From a virus (taxonomy: Duplodnaviria; Heunggongvirae; Uroviricota; Caudoviricetes): 48,566 nt of DNA. The stretch is taken from positions 1 to 48,566 of the IMG/VR virus record IMGVR_UViG_2636415673_000004; one strand, 5' to 3'. Positions 1 through 47,160 of this stretch are shown here, one piece after another (position 1 is the first letter of the stretch; each line of letters starts with the position of its first letter). The position numbers were made by a program, and so were the translations under genes. The notes below the pieces were generated by a model. That model searched no databases, was not told the DNA's origin, and saw only the letters and a program-made list of their open reading frames with translations.

Positions 1-234
1 ATGAAATCAAAAGACACCCTAAAGTGGTTCCCTGCGCAGCTTCCTGAAGTAAGAATTATCCTAGGGGATGCTGTAGTGGAAGTAGCAAAACAGGGAAGAC
101 CTATCAATACCAGAACATTGCTTGATTACATTGAAGGAAACATAAAGAAAAAATCATGGCTGGATAACAAAGAATTATTACAAACAGCGATATCAGTTCT
201 TAAAGACAACCAAAATTTAAATGGTAAAATGTAA
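1..234 (+). CDS. ydfK: YdfK/YnaE-like prophage cold-shock protein (77 aa)
   Basis: ORF-track protein MKSKDTLKWFPAQLPEV... matches my recollection of the 77-aa Qin/Rac YdfK/YnaE; ATG at position 1. Confidence 0.6.
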   Translation: MKSKDTLKWFPAQLPEVRIILGDAVVEVAKQGRPINTRTLLDYIEGNIKKKSWLDNKELLQTAISVLKDNQNLNGKM

Positions 235-550
235 TATAATAAACTTACTTTTTTATCATTTTTCCACTTTAACAACATTTTGCTCCACTTTTCCACGACC
301 AAACAACTTGAAATCTGGTTAAAATAACACGCAACACTATTCTTCTTCCTTGAGTCCTCCCGGAACTCGAAAAACAAACCGAGTTAAAGCCATTTTTCAC
401 AAAATCGATTTTGGGTCTCACCAAAATTACGGGGTTGCATACGCATTCGTTTATTTTCGAACGTGTACATACAAATATGCACAAAAATAATCATAATTAT
501 TTTCTGAGATGCATTATGATATGAACACCAATTTCGTATAGAGTCTCACT

Positions 551-1141
551 ATGTCTCGAATTTTTGCTTACTGTCGGATATCAACGCTGGATCAGACCAC
601 CGAAAATCAACGCCGGGAAATCGAAAGTGCAGGTTTTAACATCAAATCTCAGCAAATAATCGAAGAACACATTAGCGGCTCAGCAGCAACCAGTGAGCGT
701 CCTGGTTTTAACCGGTTGCTTGCTCGCCTGAAATGTGGTGATCAATTGATTGTGACAAAACTGGATCGCCTTGGTTGTAATGCAATGGATATCAGGAAAA
801 CAGTGGAACAACTGACCGAAACAGGTATCAGAGTGCATTGCTTAGCATTGGGGGGCATTGACCTGACCAGTCCAACAGGAAAAATGATGATGCAAGTAAT
901 TTCAGCAGTCGCTGAATTTGAACGAGACCTTTTACTTGAACGCACTCATTCCGGGATAGTAAGAGCCCGCGGCGCAGGGAAACGTTTTGGTCGACCACCT
1001 GTGTTAAATGAAGAACAGAAACAGGTGGTATTCGAACGAATTAAGTCAGGTGTAAGTATAAGTGCCATTGCCCGGGAATTCAAAACCTCGCGGCAAACCA
1101 TTTTAAGAGCCAAAGCAAAACTTCAGACACCTGACATATAA
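551..1141 (+). CDS. pinQ: Serine recombinase, Pin/Gin/Hin-family DNA invertase (196 aa)
   Basis: N-terminal catalytic motif [10 protein letters not shown] and C-terminal HTH; same length as PinQ/PinR; lies next to tail-fibre genes. Confidence 0.9.
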
Positions 1142-1368
1142 AAAATAATCTCGGTGTGAGATGCTTTACGTCTTCCAAGCCCCCTTCCTTGCCGTAAATG
1201 GAAAGATACATCTAATTATAGAATTTATATGTTTTACCCTACGGCAGTGCTGGCCATTCAATATCCTGTGCAGTTGACGTATCAACACGGTTCAGCAATA
1301 CCCGATACTTTTTCCATGCTTCCAGCAATGAGATTTCTTCCTCCGTTGCATATACAGCTCACCTTTTT

Positions 1369-1662
1369 TCACCCACGATTAACCAACAGCCAGACCAGCA
1401 GACACGCCACCACCGGCACAGCAAAATCTATCAGGCTTGCCACATCCCAAACACGCGGATCAAAACCGCCCCACCACGGCATGTTAATCCGCTTGCAATG
1501 CCCGAACATTTCAATCCAGCGATATTCTGCCTGGGTGTGTTCCCGCGCAATGAAGAATGTACAACCGGCTATCGCCCCGTAAGCCCAGTTTCCGGTAAAA
1601 AGACCAACCAGTACCTGCGCAGCCACAGCACAAAGCGCATGAAGAAAAGGTGTTATATCCAT
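1369..1662 (-). CDS. Small hydrophobic (probable inner-membrane) protein; start uncertain (1662, 1668 or 1692)
   Basis: ORF with hydrophobic segments directly downstream of the S74 fibre gene; AGGA lies 5 nt before the ATG at 1662. Confidence 0.4.
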   Translation of the reverse strand: MDITPFLHALCAVAAQVLVGLFTGNWAYGAIAGCTFFIAREHTQAEYRWIEMFGHCKRINMPWWGGFDPRVWDVASLIDFAVPVVACLLVWLLVNRG

Positions 1663-1703
1663 TTTCATCCTACCCAATAAAACGGGGCGCATAGCCCTTA
1701 ATA

Positions 1704-2756: not shown

Positions 2757-3026
2757 TTAAGCCCATGTCCTTACATGCTGATCTGTCGTAATGAAAGGCA
2801 TTAAAGAAGATATGTTTTTACTGCTATCAACAATCCTCATGTTTACGAAAAAACCACCGCGATCAATGCCTGTACATCTTTCGTTTTCTGGCTCCTCGTA
2901 ATCGATAATGCAGCCAATAACATCAACAAGAACCCCGTTTTCTTCTTCAAGACTGAACAGGCCACTGTCATATACAATTGCGTTAAACTGTTCTCTGTTA
3001 TCGAATCGTAATGTTATATCTCGCAT
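2757..3026 (-). CDS. Hypothetical protein (89 aa), translationally coupled to stf; possible fibre accessory/assembly factor
   Basis: ATG overlaps the stf stop as TAATG; no recognisable domain. Confidence 0.4.
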   Translation of the reverse strand: MRDITLRFDNREQFNAIVYDSGLFSLEEENGVLVDVIGCIIDYEEPENERCTGIDRGGFFVNMRIVDSSKNISSLMPFITTDQHVRTWA

Positions 3027-5383
3027 TATACGTATTCCTTAAGCTGCGTATCTGACAATGCTCTGTTCCAGAAACGGAGGTTTTTTATATGACCATTAAG
3101 GTGTCGTAATCCTGTCGTCGTTTGCCCCCCGATACGAATCACGGCTGCTTCACGAATATATTTCCATACTGTTTTTGTTTCAGCGCTTATATGCTTATTT
3201 GCAAATGAGCATGTCATGCCGTCAGCCTTAACCCTGAATCCCATAACGAGATCCCTTACTCCGCATGATTCATATACACGTCGGTTAGCCCCGCCTATAT
3301 CGCAATACGAATAACCGTCCTGACTGATAGTTCCAGAAGAACCAAACCCCATAATAAATGGGCCTCCGGACTGGTGATTTTCTGAATCAATGACACGCGG
3401 TGCAGCATTATGAGAAATAAACCAGTTTTTATGGACTTCCACCATGAACGTAAAAGGCATGGTATACATATTTTTCATCAGCGGAAATTTACATAAATCT
3501 GATGCACGAGTCGCTGGCTCTGTTGTCGTTATGATGAAGGAAGTTGCACAAGCACCATACTCGAATTGCGGGGTGGTTACTTCTATCCAGTCACCTGTTG
3601 CAAAAGCTCCCACAGCTCTGTCGGCTGCAATTTGCAGCTGCGTACCAACCATTCCCCATTCTGGCAGACATTTCAGTGTTGCCTGAAAATATATCCATCC
3701 ACTACCAGGGTCGATTTCAAAGTTTGCTGTTAATAGCTGGGCATTGCCACCAGTAATTTGTAGTTCATGGGTCTGTAATGACAAATAGGCGTCGCAAAGG
3801 AAGGTGTATCCTTCCGAGTTATACCGTTCAAAACGGATACGTGCGCGAACATTGAGATCACTTCTTACCCTGAACGACGCGGTAACATACGGACCTTTAC
3901 TGTACTGATCATCGCCAGTCACATCTATGCCTTTGTTACCAGCAACTGTGCATATATTTCTCCCTGTTGTCGTTCCTGCTATATCGCTTCCTACCGTGAA
4001 ACGTCCATATTTAAACTCAAATTCATCTGTTGATGATGTTACAGATATACCACCGCTTTTATTCCACGCATCAGGATTAAAACTATTTACGAACATGTTT
4101 GTTCGCTGATTCTCTATCAGCAAACCATATTTTTCAAAACGAGGAACGTTATTACCTGCCACGGTAATATGCCCGGACTTATCAATATACGTTGCAGATG
4201 AAGCCCGGCTAAATTGGCATATGCCATTAACTGGCACAGTGATTTCATCGCTGCCGATGGTTATTGTTTTATACCCCGGCGCATACCCTGTTATCGCTTC
4301 CAGAGAATCATTCAAGGGTAGCCAGATATCAGGAAGCGGAGGGACAGAAGCAGGATCAGCGGCATCTTCTGCAATCCGGGCTGCATTCTCTGCTCTTGTT
4401 GCGGCTGACGTTGCTTCTGTCTCGCTGGCTGCTGCTTTTGTTTCGCTCGCCTTTGCGTTAGTTTCACTGGTTTTTGCAGCTTTTTGGCTATTAGCTGCCG
4501 CTGTTGCAGAACCAGCTGCAGCACTCTCGCTTTCGGCTGCTGCATCCTGACTGCTTTTCGCCGCAGTTTCGCTGGCTTTGGCATTCGTTTCGCTGGTCTT
4601 CGCTGCCGTCTGGCTGGACTTTGCGTTAGTTTCACTCGTCTTCGCAGCTTTCTGGCTGTTAGCCGCAGCAGTTGCTGATCCAGCTGCTGAAGTCGCAGAA
4701 CCGGCTGCCGCGCTCTCGCTTTGGGCTGCTGCAACCTGGCTGTTTTTTGCCGCAGTTTCACTGGCTTTGGCATTCGTTTCGCTGGTCTTCGCTGCCGTCT
4801 GGCTGGACTTTGCGTTGGTTTCGCTCGTCTTTGCGGCTGTCTCGCTGTTTTTCGCGTTGGTTTCTGATTTTTTGGCTGCTGTCGCGGAGTTTGCCGATGC
4901 AGTCTGTGAGGTCGCTGCCGCCTGTGCGCTGTTAGCTGCATTCGTTTCTGAGGTTTTCGCCGCGTTCTTCGATGATGCCGCTGCAGTTTCGGATTTCTTT
5001 GCCGCCGCTGCGCTCTGAGAGGCGGCTTCGGCGTTGCGTGCCGCTTCTTCCACCATTTCCTCAAAACGGCGCAATGCCTCCGGCATGACATCATCTTCCG
5101 TCATGGCACCGAGAAAATCATTCAGCGTACCTGGTCTGGAACCTTCATAGACGGTAATGGTCCCGGCATGTGAAGGCGGAAAACCTTCAACCAGCAGGGT
5201 GACGCTGTACTGGCCATACTCAACATCCATGCTGTAACGCCCGGCTTCATCAGGATTTTCAGAGGCCACCGTGTTCACCAGTACCGTGGTGCTGTTACGC
5301 TTTGCCTTCAGTTGAATAGTGCAGTTCTGTATTGGTTTTCCCGCACCATCTTTCAGCACACCTGAGATTTTTACTGCTGCCAT
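3026..5383 (-). CDS. stf: Side tail fibre protein Stf (about 785 aa) with lambda-Stf-like N-terminus, Ala/Ser/Thr tandem repeats and LamG-like C-terminal domain
   Basis: N-terminus MAAVKISGVLKDG... resembles lambda Stf; repeated KTSETNAK units; C-terminus ends in a ...NLRFWNRALSDTQL motif. ATG at 5383 preferred over GTG at 5389. Confidence 0.8.
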   Translation of the reverse strand: MAAVKISGVLKDGAGKPIQNCTIQLKAKRNSTTVLVNTVASENPDEAGRYSMDVEYGQYSVTLLVEGFPPSHAGTITVYEGSRPGTLNDFLGAMTEDDVMPEALRRFEEMVEEAARNAEAASQSAAAAKKSETAAASSKNAAKTSETNAANSAQAAATSQTASANSATAAKKSETNAKNSETAAKTSETNAKSSQTAAKTSETNAKASETAAKNSQVAAAQSESAAAGSATSAAGSATAAANSQKAAKTSETNAKSSQTAAKTSETNAKASETAAKSSQDAAAESESAAAGSATAAANSQKAAKTSETNAKASETKAAASETEATSAATRAENAARIAEDAADPASVPPLPDIWLPLNDSLEAITGYAPGYKTITIGSDEITVPVNGICQFSRASSATYIDKSGHITVAGNNVPRFEKYGLLIENQRTNMFVNSFNPDAWNKSGGISVTSSTDEFEFKYGRFTVGSDIAGTTTGRNICTVAGNKGIDVTGDDQYSKGPYVTASFRVRSDLNVRARIRFERYNSEGYTFLCDAYLSLQTHELQITGGNAQLLTANFEIDPGSGWIYFQATLKCLPEWGMVGTQLQIAADRAVGAFATGDWIEVTTPQFEYGACATSFIITTTEPATRASDLCKFPLMKNMYTMPFTFMVEVHKNWFISHNAAPRVIDSENHQSGGPFIMGFGSSGTISQDGYSYCDIGGANRRVYESCGVRDLVMGFRVKADGMTCSFANKHISAETKTVWKYIREAAVIRIGGQTTTGLRHLNGHIKNLRFWNRALSDTQLKEYV
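4420..4935. repeat. In-frame tandem DNA repeats (about 189-bp period) inside stf
   Basis: The block ccgcagtttc(g/a)ctggctttggcattcgtttcgctggtcttcgctgccgtctggctggactttgcgtt occurs at about 4561 and 4750, with degenerate copies upstream. Confidence 0.7.
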
Positions 5384-5394
5384 ATCCACTCCAC

Positions 5395-26800: not shown

Positions 26801-27003
26801 ATTTTCACTTTCTTAAATCTAACGACAGACGGCTAACATTTAAGTATTGTGAAATATTATCAAATGTAATCATCATTGATTTACAAAAGATACATTTTGC
26901 CCCGAAAGGATTCCTGTCAGAAACATCAAAAGATGATGTTCTATACTGAGAACCATGGCAACACGGGCATCTAAAGTGAATATGGTTTGTAATATTTTCT
27001 ACC

Positions 27004-27216
27004 TCAAAGTGCCACTACATGAACAGCCGCGGGGCCTTTAGGTCCGTTCTCAATACCAAATTCGACTTGCTGATTCTCAGTTAACGTTTTGAAATCGTTG
27101 CTCTGAATAGCTGAGAAATGGACAAACACATCTTTGCTACCATCTTTCGGCGTGATGAAACCAAAACCTTTTTCAGGGTTAAACCATTTCACTAAACCAG
27201 TCATTTTGTTAGACAT
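27004..27216 (-). CDS. cspI: Cold-shock protein CspI (70 aa)
   Basis: [45 protein letters not shown]... is a cold-shock domain with RNP motifs. Confidence 0.85.
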
Positions 27217-27584
27217 CATTATTACCTTTTGAAGAAGTTAGCCCTTGGGCAGAATGGTCCGAAAAAAATATCAGAGAGAAAAACCAACAAGGAAATCTCA
27301 AGAGGTACAAATAATAAAATTATAACAATGACTGCTTCAGATAATTTTGTAACAAACCAGAACACCATTAACGCATGATTAACCAACCATAGCAAGGATT
27401 ACTTTTGTAAAGAAAAACACACGAATGAAACAATAGCTTTATTTATTAATAAAACGTATCATTCTGTCTAATGACCTTTTATCTTACCCTTAAGATTTCA
27501 AGGATTTTGACTCATGGAAGAGTCCTTTTTATTTAAATTTCACATTCAGCGCTAAAAATAATCCGATTTAATGTTAATCTACAT

Positions 27585-29903: not shown

Positions 29904-30266
29904 TTGATTTTATTCGTAACAAGTATTTTTTATATTTTAATAACATATTTAAAGCAGATAATAAAAAACCCGCCTGAGCGGGTTTAATATTGTGGTACTT
30001 TTTGTGGGAGTCATCCACTTACGCACTTTGTTTTGCTATGCCAGCAGTTAGCTTCTGCTGTAAAACTATTCATGCAGCAAACCTGCACTTCACCACAATG
30101 GTTAGCATACTTTTCCTGATTAAGTTATTGCCAAATATGCTGGCCATTGTTTCATGTATTGGACCTCCTTACTATTTATTAAAGAGATCCAATATTCACC
30201 ACTCTGTCTGTATCTCCACTCAGGCATCAGCCTTCTTCGTTATCGTATACAGACAAACTATGAATT

Positions 30267-30482
30267 TTAATCAGTAATTATGACATTTGCTGCTGCAGGA
30301 CCTTTAGCACCACTCTCTACAGAGAAGGTAACCTTTTGACCTTCAAATAAGGTTCGATAATTATCATTCTGAATCGCAGAAAAATGCACAAACACATCTT
30401 TACTACCATCAACAGGAGAAATAAAGCCAAAACCTTTATCAGCGTTAAACCATTTTACTAAACCAGTCATTTTATTTGACAT
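30267..30482 (-). CDS. cspB: Cold-shock protein CspB (71 aa)
   Basis: [45 protein letters not shown].... Confidence 0.85.
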
Positions 30483-30782
30483 TCTACATTCCTTAACTTG
30501 AGCCTTTCGGCATAAATGGCTTGTATAACAGAAACGACTTCGTACTTAATTGGAGAGACTCAAAGAAGGAATAAGTGAATAACACCTGAAATGAGAACTG
30601 CTTTAGTAAACTACTTCGTATATCGTCTGTTCTTCAAACCGACGCAATCATTAACGCATAGTTGAACATATGAAGCAATGTTTATTTTAGACATCCAGCC
30701 ATCTTCAACCCCATCAAAAAACTATAGCTTTCTTCAGGAACGTGTGTATAGTGCGCCAAGTTATCAGTATTAAGGAATTTTT

Positions 30783-38197: not shown

Positions 38198-38824
38198 ATG
38201 GAAACGGTTGGTCAGCGTATAAAAGCTCTGAGAAGGGTTACCAGAACGTCCCAGAAAGAATTGGGTAAATTTTGTGGGGTAAGTGACGTTGCTGTGGGGT
38301 ACTGGGAAAAAGACATCAATGTCCCTGGCGGGGAAGCACTTTCGAAATTAGCGAAGTTCTTTAATACGTCAATAGATTACATTCTTTATGGTGCTGAGTT
38401 TGAAGGCAAACTAGTCACAAACATGCGCAGAGTTCCTGTAATTTCGTGGGTTCAGGCTGGGCAGTTTACTGAGTGCAGGGCAGCAGAAGTGTTTAGTGAA
38501 GTGGACAAGTGGGTAGATACATCTTTAAAGATTGGTGATAACTCATTTGCATTAGAAGTTAAAGGCGACTCCATGACTAATCCTAATGGCCTCCCAACAA
38601 TACCAGAAGGTGCAACAGTGATTGTAGATCCTGATGCAGAACCTCGTCATGGAAAAATAGTCATTGCTCGACTTGATGGAACGAACGAAGCTACAGTAAA
38701 AAAATTAGTCATCGATGGTCCTCAAAAGTTTTTAGTGCCATTAAATCCACGGTATCCCAACATCCCAATCAATGGTAATTGCCTGATCATTGGTGTAGTC
38801 AAAGGAGTTCAATACGAACTCTAG
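38198..38824 (+). CDS. cI: CI-type prophage repressor (HTH-XRE plus S24 LexA-like autopeptidase), 208 aa
   Basis: N-terminal HTH (QKELGKFCGVSDVAVGYWEKD); C-terminal S24 motifs GDSM (Ser) and a downstream Lys (ATVKKL). Confidence 0.85.
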   Translation: METVGQRIKALRRVTRTSQKELGKFCGVSDVAVGYWEKDINVPGGEALSKLAKFFNTSIDYILYGAEFEGKLVTNMRRVPVISWVQAGQFTECRAAEVFSEVDKWVDTSLKIGDNSFALEVKGDSMTNPNGLPTIPEGATVIVDPDAEPRHGKIVIARLDGTNEATVKKLVIDGPQKFLVPLNPRYPNIPINGNCLIIGVVKGVQYEL

Positions 38825-43332: not shown

Positions 43333-46300
43333 TCACACGCTGCGCCTTCGAGAATATTCATTTAATCGCTGATAACGAACATCTTGCTCCAGTTGTGGAG
43401 CAGCTTGAACAATTTGAAGCAAGCATTGCCCCAACTCTCGAGGCCCCCAGTGTTGTTCGGCAATCACGGCATTCAGCAGGGATAGAGCGTCCGCAGGATA
43501 TCGGCTGCAAATATCTGATTCTAGCAAAAGGCGAACGTCGTAGCTAAGGTGTTCGAGCGGTTGCAGCCAGTCCTGCACCACTGCCAAAGCCGCCGGAAAT
43601 TCACCTCGGGCAGCAATCACCATACGAGTCAACGATTCGGATATGCGTGGGGTGGCCAAGTTGCGGGACTTTGGCCAAACCTGTTGCCAAAATGGCTGGA
43701 CACGATTTTTCCAATACTCCTCGCGCTGATCGCCCGCACCTTCAAGTGCCTGGTATAACGCCTGCGCGGCTACCTCCAGACCTTCTTGTGGAAGAGCACT
43801 AATTGCCGTTCGGAACTCCTCCACGGTATATCCCTCGGTAGGGCCCAGAGCTGCATAAGTCAGGAAAGTAGCGAATTGCTGCCGGTGCTCGCCAAGATCA
43901 GAATAGTGATTGGCGCTCTCCAAAAAATCTGACTTGAAAGCTATCAGCAACGGTTCATACAGGCGTGGCGACCAGAGGAAGCCTTCCCACACAGCTTTTG
44001 CTTCGACGGGATTACTCCAAGCAAACAAGGGCAATAGATACTGTTCGGTCCAAGGTCGATCTACGCGAAAAAATGCGATCAGCCGCGACCCCAGCAACAC
44101 CCGACCATGGCGGAATAGCTCTATCTGTACATTACACAATTTGGTGAAAAGTGTTTTCAATTCAACAGGAAGCAAATCATTGTCATTCGGGTTCTGTTTG
44201 AACCATAGGGTGATCAGTGATTGCGTGACATGCCCAATGGGATGATTGATCGCCGTAGAAACAGGATCATAGGTCTCAATTCCGTTTCGAATGGTGCTAG
44301 ACTCTGGGCTTGTTTCTATCATCAGAACCCGACGACAAAGGGCCAGTAGAATCTCCTCGTGGCAGAGGATGGTCTTCGAAGCCTCCTCCATCCACCAAGT
44401 GACAGCGTGGGAAATCTCCTGAAGTACTGCGTCAGGCATGTCAAGCACCAACGGTGCGGCGTACCGCCACGAACGCAAAATCATCCCTGGTTCAGCCCAA
44501 GTCTGCAGAGCTTCACGCCACCGACCAACAGGCCACACATCATCTTGTGATAGTTTACTTAACGCATACAGACTGTGAAAAAAGCGCGTACGGCAAACAT
44601 CACTCCAAGTGTCCTCATAGAAAGGCAGTCTTTCTGGCATAGGCTTTGCGAGCCATTGCACTAATTCCTGCCACTTACGGGGCGCAATGTCGACATCTAT
44701 ATTCTCCTCGAAGCCTGGATCACCGGTTCCGCTCATCCAGTGAGAGAATTCATCACGCTCGTTGGTTGCCAGTTGCCATTTTGGGTATGCTGTGGATATT
44801 TCCGTCAAACGTGTAGCCGCAGACTCTCCCAAAACAAGGCCCGCTCCCCTGAGCTTCGCTAGACACAACCAGACGGAATGAGCCACCAAATAATGCCACC
44901 TGTCTGCTTCCAAATTATCCTCGTACATCTCGCGCGGAGGCCCTGCCAAGATAGCAGTTTCCAGACGCTCTTGTGCAATTCCTGTCAGATGTCGTCCCTG
45001 CAAAACAAACAGTCTGAATACCTCTCGCCCAGTATCCGTGGCCCACAACCACCATGAACCGTCCTCTAACAACCAATTAACCCACCGCTCAGGTGGTATG
45101 CAGTTGTCTTGGCTTGCGGCAAACAGTGCCAGACGTTTGAAGGTGGGATATGGCAACTCAAACCAATTCTGAGCAATGCGCGTGGCCTGATCGCTGTCTT
45201 TGGCTCGAACGGCTAACCATGAATCCCGAAGTAATTCAATCAGGCTCACCCAATCGCGGAACCCCCGGTTCTGCCAGTGCGGAGTGATGGACGGCAAATC
45301 CCAATGCGAGCGGTCGTGACGATCGTCGGACTCTCCCAACTCCCGCAACAAGTCCAGTGCATCACGCAACAACTGCTGAAAATCTTCCAACAGGTATGGC
45401 AAGGACGATTTCCATGACTCGTCAGCAAGGTCGAACAGGGTTGAACGTACGTAATCAGCAGTCAGCACCAGCTCCCAATCCACCAATTGCTTGATTCGCA
45501 AGGGTTCATCAGTGCTGCTCGAATCGTCTTCACTATAGCGAAACGGCCGCCTCAACATAACCTTGGGAGAAAGCAACTCGCGTAACTCCAAGCGCAATGT
45601 AGTCGTCAAGCCTTCATTCTTTAAGCGGTTTTGCCAACGATACAAATCCAGGTTCTGCAATGGCGATTTCACACGACCACTAAGCAGAAGCCGCCATAAA
45701 GTAGACATAGGTGGACCAGGAATAGCCAGGGGGGAATGCAAGAGAATTTCATCTAACTCAAAAGTCTTACGCTCCCGCATCAGTGCTGCTAAGCGATCTA
45801 GTTCGCTCTCAATCAGAAACATCCAACGGTCGTGTATTTGTCCGCCGCGTTCAGCAATCCATATGATCAACCTAGGGTCGCCCAGATAACGAACTAGCCA
45901 ACGGGCTATATGGGACATTACGTCATCCCATTTGCTAGCACTGACACATCCAGAAACCAGCGACATCTGCAGGGCCAGCTCATAGGGCGCAGGACGCTGA
46001 ACCAGACTGAATCGGAGTTTCGGGTCAATTTCGACATGCGGAGATACACAAAAGCGTGGCAGATCGCTGTATTTAAATCGTTCGTCCGAGAAAGCTTTCA
46101 ATAACCAATCCAGCGGCGGTGCAGGATTGAGTTCCGCAAAGCGTTTTGCTGGTAAACCTGATTTATCTGACAAGGCCCACAACATCCGACCAACGAAATC
46201 GTCCTGACGAGTGCTGTCCTGCGGGCGGGCCAGAGCATGTTTGACGACTATAGCCTCTTTGCCCTGTATACCATCTCGATAAGTATCTGCCCAAGCGTGC

Positions 46301-47160
46301 AACGTTTGATGCAGCACTGAATGATCAGTGGAGCCCGCCGGTACGGTGTAAAGGATAGGAGTGACCCCTTTGGCCTCCCACTCGATGGCTTTCCGGTGCT
46401 CCTGCCCCGGCTCACACTCCCCCAGTGCCCATACTTGTGGTGTGACTTCACCGAGCCTCCGATCTGCTGCAAGCGCATCCATCATGTAGCGCAGTACCGG
46501 GTCGTTGATGCTGTAGCCAACGAAGCAGACCACATAGTTACGAAATAACTCACTCACAAAGCGAGCTGCCCAACGCTCAGTGAGATAAGCCAAGCCAAAG
46601 TCACCGCTGGTAACAACCAGACGATTCAGGGCAGTATCATCCGCCTTTTCCGGTAACAGCCCATGCAGGTATACAAGTCCATCCCAGCGGCTGTTTTTTG
46701 GAATTGGCAGCATCGGCGCTACATAGGCCTGAAAAGCCTGGCCTGTACGTTTAGCTGCCACATGAAAGAGACGGTCAAAGTTGGTAGTGACCAATCGAAG
46801 GGCACCCTCGCGGCTACGGGCTAAACGTAACAGCGCCGCCTGAGTATCAATAGCGCCCCTACGACGGAGCTTTGGCTTAAGGGCTTTTTCCAACGCGCGT
46901 CGGACGGCTATACGCTGCCCTGGTAAGCGCCGTTCCAGCAAATCTAATGTGCCGTCAAATTGCCCACGCTCGAAAACCTCACGCTCAATTTCTGAAAGTG
47001 TTGTTCCGTTCCTCTGGTAAATTAGTTCTACCAACCCTTTGAAACCAGGTAAACCAGCAGGGTAGGAAATGCCTGCTCCACAGAAGAACACAACGCGCCC
47101 TTCCTCGTGCGCCTGCAAAAGCTCATCAGGAATATCAGGGCCGTTGGTAATGAATTGCAT
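43333..47160 (-). CDS. Large SIR2-domain protein (1275 aa): N-terminal sirtuin-like NADase domain (about aa 20-290) plus about 1000-aa helical C-terminal region of unknown function; candidate antiphage defence protein
   Basis: Sirtuin motifs GAGIS-x-P-x-GLPGF (aa 28-40), TTNFD (N127) and YLHG (H166); strong RBS (AGGAGG, 7 nt, ATG); cargo position between xis and int. Confidence 0.8.
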   Translation of the reverse strand: MQFITNGPDIPDELLQAHEEGRVVFFCGAGISYPAGLPGFKGLVELIYQRNGTTLSEIEREVFERGQFDGTLDLLERRLPGQRIAVRRALEKALKPKLRRRGAIDTQAALLRLARSREGALRLVTTNFDRLFHVAAKRTGQAFQAYVAPMLPIPKNSRWDGLVYLHGLLPEKADDTALNRLVVTSGDFGLAYLTERWAARFVSELFRNYVVCFVGYSINDPVLRYMMDALAADRRLGEVTPQVWALGECEPGQEHRKAIEWEAKGVTPILYTVPAGSTDHSVLHQTLHAWADTYRDGIQGKEAIVVKHALARPQDSTRQDDFVGRMLWALSDKSGLPAKRFAELNPAPPLDWLLKAFSDERFKYSDLPRFCVSPHVEIDPKLRFSLVQRPAPYELALQMSLVSGCVSASKWDDVMSHIARWLVRYLGDPRLIIWIAERGGQIHDRWMFLIESELDRLAALMRERKTFELDEILLHSPLAIPGPPMSTLWRLLLSGRVKSPLQNLDLYRWQNRLKNEGLTTTLRLELRELLSPKVMLRRPFRYSEDDSSSTDEPLRIKQLVDWELVLTADYVRSTLFDLADESWKSSLPYLLEDFQQLLRDALDLLRELGESDDRHDRSHWDLPSITPHWQNRGFRDWVSLIELLRDSWLAVRAKDSDQATRIAQNWFELPYPTFKRLALFAASQDNCIPPERWVNWLLEDGSWWLWATDTGREVFRLFVLQGRHLTGIAQERLETAILAGPPREMYEDNLEADRWHYLVAHSVWLCLAKLRGAGLVLGESAATRLTEISTAYPKWQLATNERDEFSHWMSGTGDPGFEENIDVDIAPRKWQELVQWLAKPMPERLPFYEDTWSDVCRTRFFHSLYALSKLSQDDVWPVGRWREALQTWAEPGMILRSWRYAAPLVLDMPDAVLQEISHAVTWWMEEASKTILCHEEILLALCRRVLMIETSPESSTIRNGIETYDPVSTAINHPIGHVTQSLITLWFKQNPNDNDLLPVELKTLFTKLCNVQIELFRHGRVLLGSRLIAFFRVDRPWTEQYLLPLFAWSNPVEAKAVWEGFLWSPRLYEPLLIAFKSDFLESANHYSDLGEHRQQFATFLTYAALGPTEGYTVEEFRTAISALPQEGLEVAAQALYQALEGAGDQREEYWKNRVQPFWQQVWPKSRNLATPRISESLTRMVIAARGEFPAALAVVQDWLQPLEHLSYDVRLLLESDICSRYPADALSLLNAVIAEQHWGPRELGQCLLQIVQAAPQLEQDVRYQRLNEYSRRRSV

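Follow-up and report, generated by a model that had tools for sequence, protein, structure and literature searches.

A probable Tn3-family transposon relic behind the pin "invertase" gene of a lambdoid prophage

The stretch of DNA considered here, hereafter the window, comprises 48,566 nucleotides (nt) of a Caudoviricetes virus (IMG/VR record IMGVR_UViG_2636415673_000004, positions 1 to 48,566) and carries close to its left end the gene pin, which encodes a small serine recombinase. A preliminary description regarded this gene as a Pin invertase and proposed a palindromic sequence upstream of it as a candidate crossover site, for which no convincing inverted partner was found. Both the open reading frame (ORF; 551-1141, + strand, 196 amino acids) and the sequence ttttcacaaaatcgattttgggtct (394-418) with its palindromic core are indeed present. 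The locus raises the question of what an invertase gene could act on where nothing seems to be inverted. The comparisons described below point, with a probability of about 0.8, to a different kind of gene: pin would be an orphan resolvase relic without a substrate in cis, left over from the right end of a cryptic Tn3-family (Tn5403-like) transposon of small size. Such an origin would explain the persistent absence of a second site.

In the proposed history, a small Tn3-family transposon inserted just downstream of the gene for phage tail fibre assembly. Its transposase gene and left end would have been lost, while a decayed res region (approximately 438-540), tnpR (now pin) and the right inverted repeat (IRR; 1150-1184) would have been kept. 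Resolvases act on two directly repeated res sites, which arise solely in a cointegrate or a dimer. Because a resolvase needs two direct res sites, a single transposon-derived copy with no second site nearby would not be expected to give inversion in cis, and with only one, degenerate site I it should not undergo recombination in cis either.

The recombinase and its transposon relatives

By sequence, the gene is pinQ/pinR of lambdoid prophages, a module that is already known. Its product is 98% identical to PinQ of Escherichia coli K-12, with four residue differences and with Cys76 in both proteins, and the 170 nt of upstream DNA (380-550) are 100% identical to the pinQ locus of the K-12 Qin prophage. 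A 1.7-kb region spanning pin has matches in 4113 of 5,426 complete E. coli genomes (approximately three quarters), the panel also used for the junctions below. Viable lambdoid phages, among them HannyBb and PhiR42_1, carry the gene as well.

The protein has the domains of a small serine recombinase (Pfam Resolvase, 1e-36, and HTH_7, 4e-11), and its residues Y7, R9 and S11 align with the active-site residues of Gin and gamma-delta resolvase. Its identity to PinE, Gin and Cin is 36-38%, while these three share 77-83% among themselves. Relatives at about 59-80% identity form a separate family across alpha-, beta- and gammaproteobacteria, with members, when one genome per species was scanned, in Shewanella, Erwinia, Photorhabdus, Mycoavidus, Oxalobacteraceae, Sphingobium and Rhodobacterales. 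In plasmids, tblastn detected more than 1500 records with 60-80% identity and a further several hundred with 80-90%. In phage records, the identity to pin is either 95-99% or below 40%, one record alone lying at 60-80%. The recognition helix, SRQTILR, is almost unchanged from the transposon enzyme and differs from the VSTLYK of the Din invertases. Across cin, gin and pinE, the DNA equivalent to the annotated Cin enhancer (nt +19 to +90) shows strong conservation; its pin counterpart is divergent, with a 12-nt insertion after it. Judged by these comparisons, pin is not an invertase of the Gin/Hin/Cin/Pin type and belongs to a separate family, the intact members of which are Tn3-family TnpR resolvases. 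Its designation as a Pin invertase is a mislabel.

Recombinases encoded on hundreds of E. coli plasmids share 85% amino acid identity with pin. In pRM10386-2, the corresponding tnpR sits in a 3.8-kb element with the order IRL - tnpA - res - tnpR - IRR, where IRL is the left inverted repeat. The terminal inverted repeats extend over 53 nt and are 94% complementary, their terminal 38 base pairs (bp) being GGGGTCCGCTTGGAAAACGGAAAATATCCCACGCTAAG (GGGG...TAAG), and a 5-bp target duplication, TTTTA, is present. The divergent tnpA encodes 914 amino acids and reaches 1096 bits on NCBIfam transpos_Tn3 (NF033527; cut-off 500). In pECOED, the divergent ORF upstream starts with MPRRQILSSEE... and includes the DUF4158 domain of Tn3-family transposases. 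By its gene content and its ends, the 3.8-kb unit of pRM10386-2 is a minimal cryptic Tn3-family transposon.

The pin locus matches the right end of this element. Local alignment and BLASTN delimit a segment at 495-1184 (+ strand), colinear with part of res, tnpR and IRR of the transposon; window positions 495-1186 align colinearly with positions 5943-6639 of L034, and BLASTN gives 83% nucleotide identity over 688 nt (E = 0). The IRR remnant (1150-1184, no strand assigned) is approximately 74% identical to the 38-bp inverted repeat of the plasmid transposon and carries a CCCC tip at 1181-1184. Homology ends right after this terminal CCCC in the window, in pRM10386-2 and in pECOED, and the three flanks are unrelated. 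A homology that ends sharply at the tip of an inverted repeat, with unrelated flanks beyond it, is the signature of a transposon end. No other piece of the element, neither tnpA nor the left inverted repeat, was found by BLASTN and TBLASTN with the transposon and TnpA in the window and 12 kb of left flank, and positions 235-495 showed no significant similarity to tnpA coding sequence.

The loss of a transposase gene next to a resolvase of this family is also seen on plasmids. Many ColV-type and other large plasmids (e.g., NC_009837.1, pAPEC-O1) keep res and tnpR of the pin family without tnpA, and in these modules homology begins 1 or 11 nt outside site I. This suggests a repeated recruitment of the module, presumably for multimer resolution.

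The upstream palindrome and the remains of res

In intact relatives, res lies between the divergent tnpA and tnpR genes. The array occupies approximately 130 nt before the start codon and consists of a 12-2-12 palindrome, a 32-bp half-site pair, a TATAAT box and a third pair. The 12-2-12 site I, for example TGACCGAAAACG AC CGGTTTCGGACA, is located approximately 115 nt upstream of the start codon. The half-site of the family is TGTMCGAAA, and each relative locus has a single 12-2-12 copy. The single copy and the pattern of the array fit the res of a resolvase and not the sites of an invertase. The TGTCCGAAA-type half-sites of the family resemble those of gamma-delta and Tn3 res. In the third subsite of relatives (e.g., L016 2886-3000 and L033 4886-5000), the half-sites are direct and not inverted (ATTCGTACA-N3-ATTTCGTACA). 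An Erwinia oleae contig (L020, 1268-2652) carries two divergent paralogous resolvase genes of the pin family, 84% identical, the shared intergenic region of which is packed with TGTMCGAAA half-sites; this arrangement was seen at that locus only.

Upstream of pin, the same order can be traced in a decayed form. A degenerate and tentative counterpart of site I (438-463, no strand assigned; CATACGCATTCG TT TATTTTCGAACG) keeps the spacing to site II found in relatives and scores -0.1 bits on the family matrix, against 29-38 bits for an intact site I. In an alternative alignment, the site I of the window contains an insertion of approximately 20 nt. Multiple alignments with the plasmid transposon and distant relatives place a probable remnant of subsite II with decayed half-sites at 476-507 (no strand assigned; TGCACAAAA...TTTTCTGAG), of which the E. 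coli allele L013 holds a better copy. In pairwise comparison, 235-495 resembles the transposon no more than expected by chance. The conserved block between subsites II and III includes a -10-like hexamer, TATGAT (515-520, + strand; TATAAT in relatives), the probable pin promoter. Alignments also indicate a remnant of subsite III (519-540, no strand assigned). Its proximal half-site, TATACGAAAT (531-540, - strand), lies between the -10 box and the ATG of pin and scores 13.6 bits, ranking 1 of approximately 97,000 window positions with a half-site matrix made from distant relatives only. On these alignments, the res of the pin locus is not intact: its positions appear to be kept, and its half-sites mostly decayed, with one strong survivor.

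The perfect 14-bp palindrome CAAAATCGATTTTG (400-413, no strand assigned), core of the candidate site 394-418, lies outside the DNA with significant similarity to the transposon and is identical in K-12 Qin and phage HannyBb. Perfect palindromes of at least 14 bp occur twice in the window, against 3.3 +/- 1.9 times in shuffles, which is chance level at window scale; for the 316-nt intergenic region, 3.5% of shuffles hold one. A matrix of Din sites was built from gix (Mu gixL/gixR), cix (P1 cixL/cixR) and pix (e14 pixL/pixR) in annotated records and from two hix half-sites. With this matrix, the 26-mer 394-419 scores -15.3 bits, compared with 29-33 bits for real sites, and ranks 412th of 48,541 positions; shuffled windows give approximately 380 equally good or better sites. 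The resemblance to gix and hix half-sites that had drawn attention to this sequence is thus of chance frequency and not significant. No real Din site emerged elsewhere in the window, where the top 26-mer reaches 9.4 bits, within the range of the shuffle maxima (6.0 +/- 2.2, maximum 12.0). The Din consensus (12-2-12, TTNTCNNAAACC type) has 0 matches with up to 3 mismatches in the whole window, and no Din-type crossover site was found in 12-13 kb of left flank.

The lack of a convincing inverted partner was confirmed. No further copy of the palindromic 14-mer with up to 2 mismatches was found in the window, and a repeat finder detected no inverted repeat involving the candidate site in the window and the 1.2 kb up to host DNA. 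In a Hamming scan of both orientations over the window and 12 kb of left flank, the best match of the 26-mer was 17/26, which is at chance, since shuffles give 16-19. The weak half-site suspected in stf near 4127-4154 stands only in part: positions 4130-4141 (TTTTTCAAAACG) form a good single half-site of 11.8 bits, but it has no paired half, and the complete 26-bp site that overlaps it (4115-4140) reaches -2.0 bits. An invertible segment of unusual size, or one extending beyond the window, finds no support either, as no partner occurs in 12 kb of flanking DNA on the left, which is host sequence beginning at prfC.

The matrices of the resolvase family itself give a similar picture. On its site I matrix, 394-419 scores -21 bits, and the arms of the palindrome score less than 3 bits on the half-site matrix and lack a TGT...CG core. 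Measured against both matrices, the palindrome is not a recombination site of either recombinase family, Din or resolvase, and its function is possibly none. Several other interpretations were considered and rejected. The 10-mer TCGATTTTGG, common to window positions 405-414 and the Mu gixR-gin spacer (L006 3540-3555), was judged probably a coincidence, the upstream regions otherwise not aligning. A crossover site at the 3' end of pin, like cixL of P1, is not supported, since the likeness at 1092-1109 has the wrong spacing and lies in coding DNA, and the pin-tfa junction is invariant. The alignment also gives no support to the palindrome being a site I without its 4 central bp. A role of 355-445 in RNA structure or termination is likewise not indicated by its fold (z-score -1.7), and this stretch has no terminator-like site or Rfam match. 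The palindrome is not known to bear a convincing likeness to operators of LacI-family or other E. coli regulators.

Natural variation at the junctions agrees with the site searches. A junction was counted as intact when at least 80% of the query was covered. The ydfK-pin junction, represented by the 316-nt intergenic query, was found in 2801 genomes and was intact in 2783 of them (99.4%). The pixR junction of e14, a positive control with a query of equal length, was found in 2397 genomes and was intact in 938; its partial matches break at query positions 145-147, which is the pix site, in approximately 60% of genomes. The pin-tfa junction is likewise conserved. In a published BLAST survey, inversions were confined to e14, with none in Qin or Rac (PMC12529663). 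The pin locus shows no inversion in cis and has no invertible segment of its own, and the candidate crossover site, with its poor scores on both matrices, sits in a junction that hardly varies. The suggestion that the invertase is cryptic holds in that neither a second site nor an invertible segment exists.

Catalysis, selection and present function

Alignments with 1gdt and with the family place codon 776-778 (+ strand), TGT, encoding Cys76, at the position of a catalytic arginine (R71 of gamma-delta/Tn3 resolvase). The motif KLDRLGC is present in all prophage-type proteins examined, namely those of the window, K-12 PinQ, HannyBb, PhiR42_1, E. ruysiae, Shigella and an 86%-identical allele, whereas KLDRLGR is present in all transposon, plasmid and distant relatives and in Gin, Cin and PinE. 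The 120 top-matching cluster representatives, drawn from 5.8 billion proteins, comprise 112 with Arg, 5 with Cys, each of these a prophage-type protein, and 3 without the exact motif. The equivalent of D36 is Glu throughout the pin family, intact transposons included, and the other catalytic residues are present. In Tn3 resolvase, R71A and R71K abolish resolution in vivo and slow cleavage approximately 1000-fold, while binding to the site is kept (PMC2794168).

Compared with tnpR of the transposon, pin has a ratio of non-synonymous to synonymous substitution rates (dN/dS) of 0.15. For a pair of prophage alleles with Cys76, which differ at 56 sites (31 non-synonymous, 25 synonymous), the ratio is 0.35. 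Such purifying selection indicates that pin probably still does something. Four metagenome proteins (P0003, P0004, P0006 and P0007) are 91-93% identical to Pin, with Arg76 and transposon-like N-terminal residues. They come from short contigs (L038, L039) starting 37-47 nt before the gene, and at least one contig, L038, resembles a prophage in having tfa downstream of the gene. The four proteins, which could be genuine recombinants of plasmid tnpR and prophage pin or else assembly chimeras, were left out of the analysis.

With a recognition helix almost unchanged, the Pin protein would still bind half-sites of the TGTMCGAAA type. Self-repression of TnpR at res is established for Tn3. By analogy, Pin occupying 519-540 could repress its own promoter, as TnpR does at res, an idea that we put forward tentatively and with the odds somewhat against it. 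Whether the chemistry of Pin is weak because of Cys76 is, on the analogy with the resolvase mutants, an even bet.

A recent report on K-12, which describes the sole activity so far published for the protein, one in trans, bears directly on these proposals. Inversion of the P segment of e14 blocks adsorption of T2 (PMC12529663), and overproduction of K-12 PinQ raises this inversion from approximately 30% to 88%, while deletion of pinQ lowers it (Kirigo et al. 2025, PMC12529663). If PinQ inverts the P segment directly, Cys76 does not cripple catalysis and PinQ must recognize pix. Judged by sequence, this fits poorly with Cys76, with a helix that is not of the Din type and with the pix sites, to which the site matrix for the family of PinQ assigns -5 to -13 bits. 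In the same study, deletion of pinE alone locks the P segment (PMC12529663). By analogy with the annotated Cin enhancer, such a deletion would also remove a cis enhancer expected in the 5' coding DNA of pinE. Because the pinE deletion locks the segment and likely removes the enhancer, the data do not distinguish between PinQ acting as the catalyst and PinQ acting indirectly. PinQ/PinR could then be an exapted Tn3-family resolvase that has lost efficient catalysis along with its transposase and its crossover site and that selection has kept as a DNA-binding protein, with an indirect effect on the P segment; we regard this extension as speculative and rather unlikely. If true, the effect would come about through regulation of PinE, interplay with it, or selection, and not through strand exchange at pix.

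Several observations count against pin as the right end of a transposon with no substrate in cis. The report on PinQ is one of them. The DNA derived from the transposon also lacks a sharp limit on its left side, with pairwise similarity significant only from 495, and the assignments of sites I and II depend on multiple alignments that disagree in detail. No prophage copy with an intact transposon was found, one chromosomal match having been inspected; taken up as a possible ancestral copy, this match turned out to be a different, cargo-carrying Tn3-family element in an island. Because no such copy was found, the history of insertion followed by decay is one that we infer, and autoregulation and reduced catalysis would be steps of the same kind, argued from analogy. 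A gene automatically named "pinR" has been annotated beside the Tn5403 or Tn3-family transposase (PMC13253593; see also record AP022135.1), and Tn5403 has been described as carrying transposition functions only (PMC13253593; PMC5142620). The name Tn5403-like rests on such published and deposited annotations, not on a sequence comparison with Tn5403. In the allele L013 (E. coli SCPM-O-B-8794; L013 2850-2863), the changes C400A and G413T turn CAAAATCGATTTTG into another perfect 14-bp palindrome, AAAAATCGATTTTT, a symmetric double change which hints that the dyad might be maintained. The intergenic region of this allele is visibly more diverged than that of the others.

Four other explanations have to be set against the transposon origin. 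If pin were a Gin/Hin-type invertase, 394-418 would be one of two crossover sites and its partner would be degenerate (stf near 4130), distant or outside the window. A crossover site lies directly upstream of the invertase gene in e14 and in Mu, 8-9 of the 12 bases in the left half TTTTCACAAAAT agree with certain Din half-sites, such as the outer pixR half TTTTCATAAACG, and the isolated half-site in stf is a good one. This explanation is nevertheless essentially refuted by the negative score of the full site, by the lack of a partner in 48.5 kb plus 12 kb of flank, by a junction that is invariant in nearly all of the approximately 2800 genomes in which it was found while the pix control breaks, and by the low identity, the other recognition helix and the unconserved enhancer-region DNA. 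The palindrome could instead belong, together with the nearby CACCAAAAT (419-427), to an operator or accessory site for Pin, which would then bind at a shortened spacing of the accessory type, or for a phage or host regulator of pin or ydfK. Its perfect dyad, three copies of C(A/C)CAAAAT within 30 nt, the symmetric change of both arms in L013 and the likeness of its arms to the site I half TGTCCAAAATCG of one relative would suit this role, and resolvase accessory sites can have non-standard spacing, as does site III of gamma-delta. We consider it improbable, however, given arms without the family core, a palindrome frequency equal to chance, an intergenic region about equally conserved throughout with no footprint, and a covariation limited to a single allele, the decayed copy L027 having no symmetry.

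The remaining two explanations concern the present role of the protein. Pin may act in trans, its job being to invert the P segment of e14 at pix and give a chimeric tail-fibre protein that blocks T2 adsorption. K-12 PinQ, which differs in 4 residues, promotes this inversion when overproduced, T2 induces pinQ, and pinQ deletion lowers survival as well as inversion (PMC12529663). Purifying selection on the Cys76 alleles implies that the protein is used, and its orphan status is compatible with such a role. Set against this are the cysteine at the R71-equivalent position, a helix-turn-helix unlike that of Din enzymes, the low pix scores on the matrix of its own family and the pinE deletion, which leaves a direct role of PinQ unseparated from an indirect one; taken together, we find action in trans possible but doubtful. 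Conversely, pin may be a decaying transposon fragment that is carried passively and has no present function, as the loss of tnpA, the decay of res and the loss of the catalytic arginine would allow; alleles that are nearly alike show as many non-synonymous as synonymous changes, although the counts are tiny. The full-length ORF is, however, retained in thousands of genomes and in viable phages, the Cys76 alleles show the dN/dS given above and phenotypes of a pinQ deletion have been published (PMC12529663), which makes a complete lack of function very improbable.

The favoured explanation thus remains an orphan resolvase derived from the right end of a Tn3-family transposon. What it adds to the known pinQ/pinR module is this origin and the conserved loss of the catalytic arginine, neither of which was found stated in the literature searched. 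The label "Pin DNA invertase", used in pipelines and papers, invites a hunt for an invertible segment that cannot exist, and resolvases of the Tn5403 type are even labelled "pinR" by annotation. The transposon origin also raises a testable question on the 2025 report that PinQ directly inverts the P segment of e14 in defence against phage. As an object the locus is ordinary, and its corrected classification may be the useful part.

The prophage setting and known systems

The window opens with the ATG of ydfK and closes at the integrase start codon. The ydfK gene (1-234, + strand), identified as an ORF and annotated under this name in identical genome copies and in K-12 Qin, encodes a cold-shock protein and is regarded as prophage cargo. 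In a genome copy that is 100% identical over window positions 1-1700, the prophage adjoins prfC, and solely a DinI-like gene, ynaM/ynfT and ydfK lie between pin and host DNA. On the other side, leftward-reading genes converge on pin: a 3' remnant of tfa (1239-1349, - strand), annotated as partial tfa in an identical genome copy, a small ORF (1369-1692), a tail-fibre protein with an endosialidase-chaperone/Peptidase_S74 domain (1704-2744, - strand, from ORF and domain), the side tail fibre gene stf (3026-5389, - strand), and lom and J beyond. The transposon end appears to abut on tfa phage DNA. Homology to K-12-type prophages spans pin to the end of tfa, with no break at the pin stop codon, and stops at approximately 1350. 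A mosaic joint lies within tfa, where only the last approximately 37 codons of a tfaQ/tfaR-type gene are left and another tail-fibre module starts from approximately 1350. Tandem repeats in the stf shaft (4506-4864, - strand), with periods of 189 nt (1.8 copies, 90% matches) and 42/21 nt, encode Ala/Ser/Thr/Lys-rich shaft repeats (...KTSETNAK...).

Other genes of the prophage can be characterized by their domains. An ORF of 1274 amino acids beside the integrase gene (43333-47160, - strand) scores 2051 bits on NCBIfam Dsr1 (cut-off 1400) and has a SIR2_2 domain; by this match, the prophage is predicted to bear a defence gene (Dsr1, anti-phage defence-associated sirtuin) at its int end. Two full-length Rfam matches to the cspA thermoregulator 5' untranslated region (26958-27373 and 30204-30643, - strand) reach 114 and 157 bits (gathering score 78), which would correspond to two cold-shock-protein genes with cspA-type RNA thermosensors, besides ydfK. 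A CI/LexA-type repressor (HTH_3 and Peptidase_S24; 38198-38824, + strand) lies amid a full lambdoid set of structural and regulatory ORFs. The repressor and the full ORF set suggest that the prophage is largely intact and not cryptic.

Compared with known systems, pin shares with the Din family (Gin of Mu, Cin of P1, Pin of e14 and Hin) a small serine recombinase with a C-terminal helix-turn-helix and a location near tail fibre genes, and Gin is its best sequence match in the PDB (2e-29). Din systems differ in having 26-bp crossover sites, an invertible segment and orientation polymorphism, none of which is present at the pin locus. Gamma-delta and Tn3 resolvases have the same fold and domain order as pin (E approximately 1e-22 to PDB chains), with the equivalents of Y6, R8, S10, R68 and others present. 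Their identity to pin is, however, only approximately one-third, and R71 is Cys in the prophage copies. Site I of Tn3 and gamma-delta is 28 bp long, whereas that of the pin family is a 12-2-12 site of 26 bp, and in the pin family the half-sites of subsite III are direct.

The closest systems are the TnpR/res modules of Tn5403-like plasmid elements (pRM10386-2 and pECOED), which are colinear with the pin locus across tnpR, starting in res subsite II and ending at the outer tip of IRR, and have the same recognition helix and -10 box. The pin locus differs from them in having no tnpA and no left inverted repeat, in the decayed half-sites of sites I and II and in the change of Arg to Cys; the plasmid unit is mobile, while the pin remnant is embedded in a phage genome. 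The tnpA-less res-tnpR modules of large plasmids resemble the prophage copy in keeping the resolvase gene after loss of the transposase, but they have an intact res and the catalytic arginine, and the prophage copy has neither. With PinQ of Qin and PinR of Rac in K-12, finally, the locus shares the order ydfK (or ynaE) - pin - convergent tfa - stf near the prophage end. It is distinguished from them by a tfa cut to its 3' remnant, by a different tail-fibre module and by its place in a prophage at prfC that looks complete rather than cryptic.

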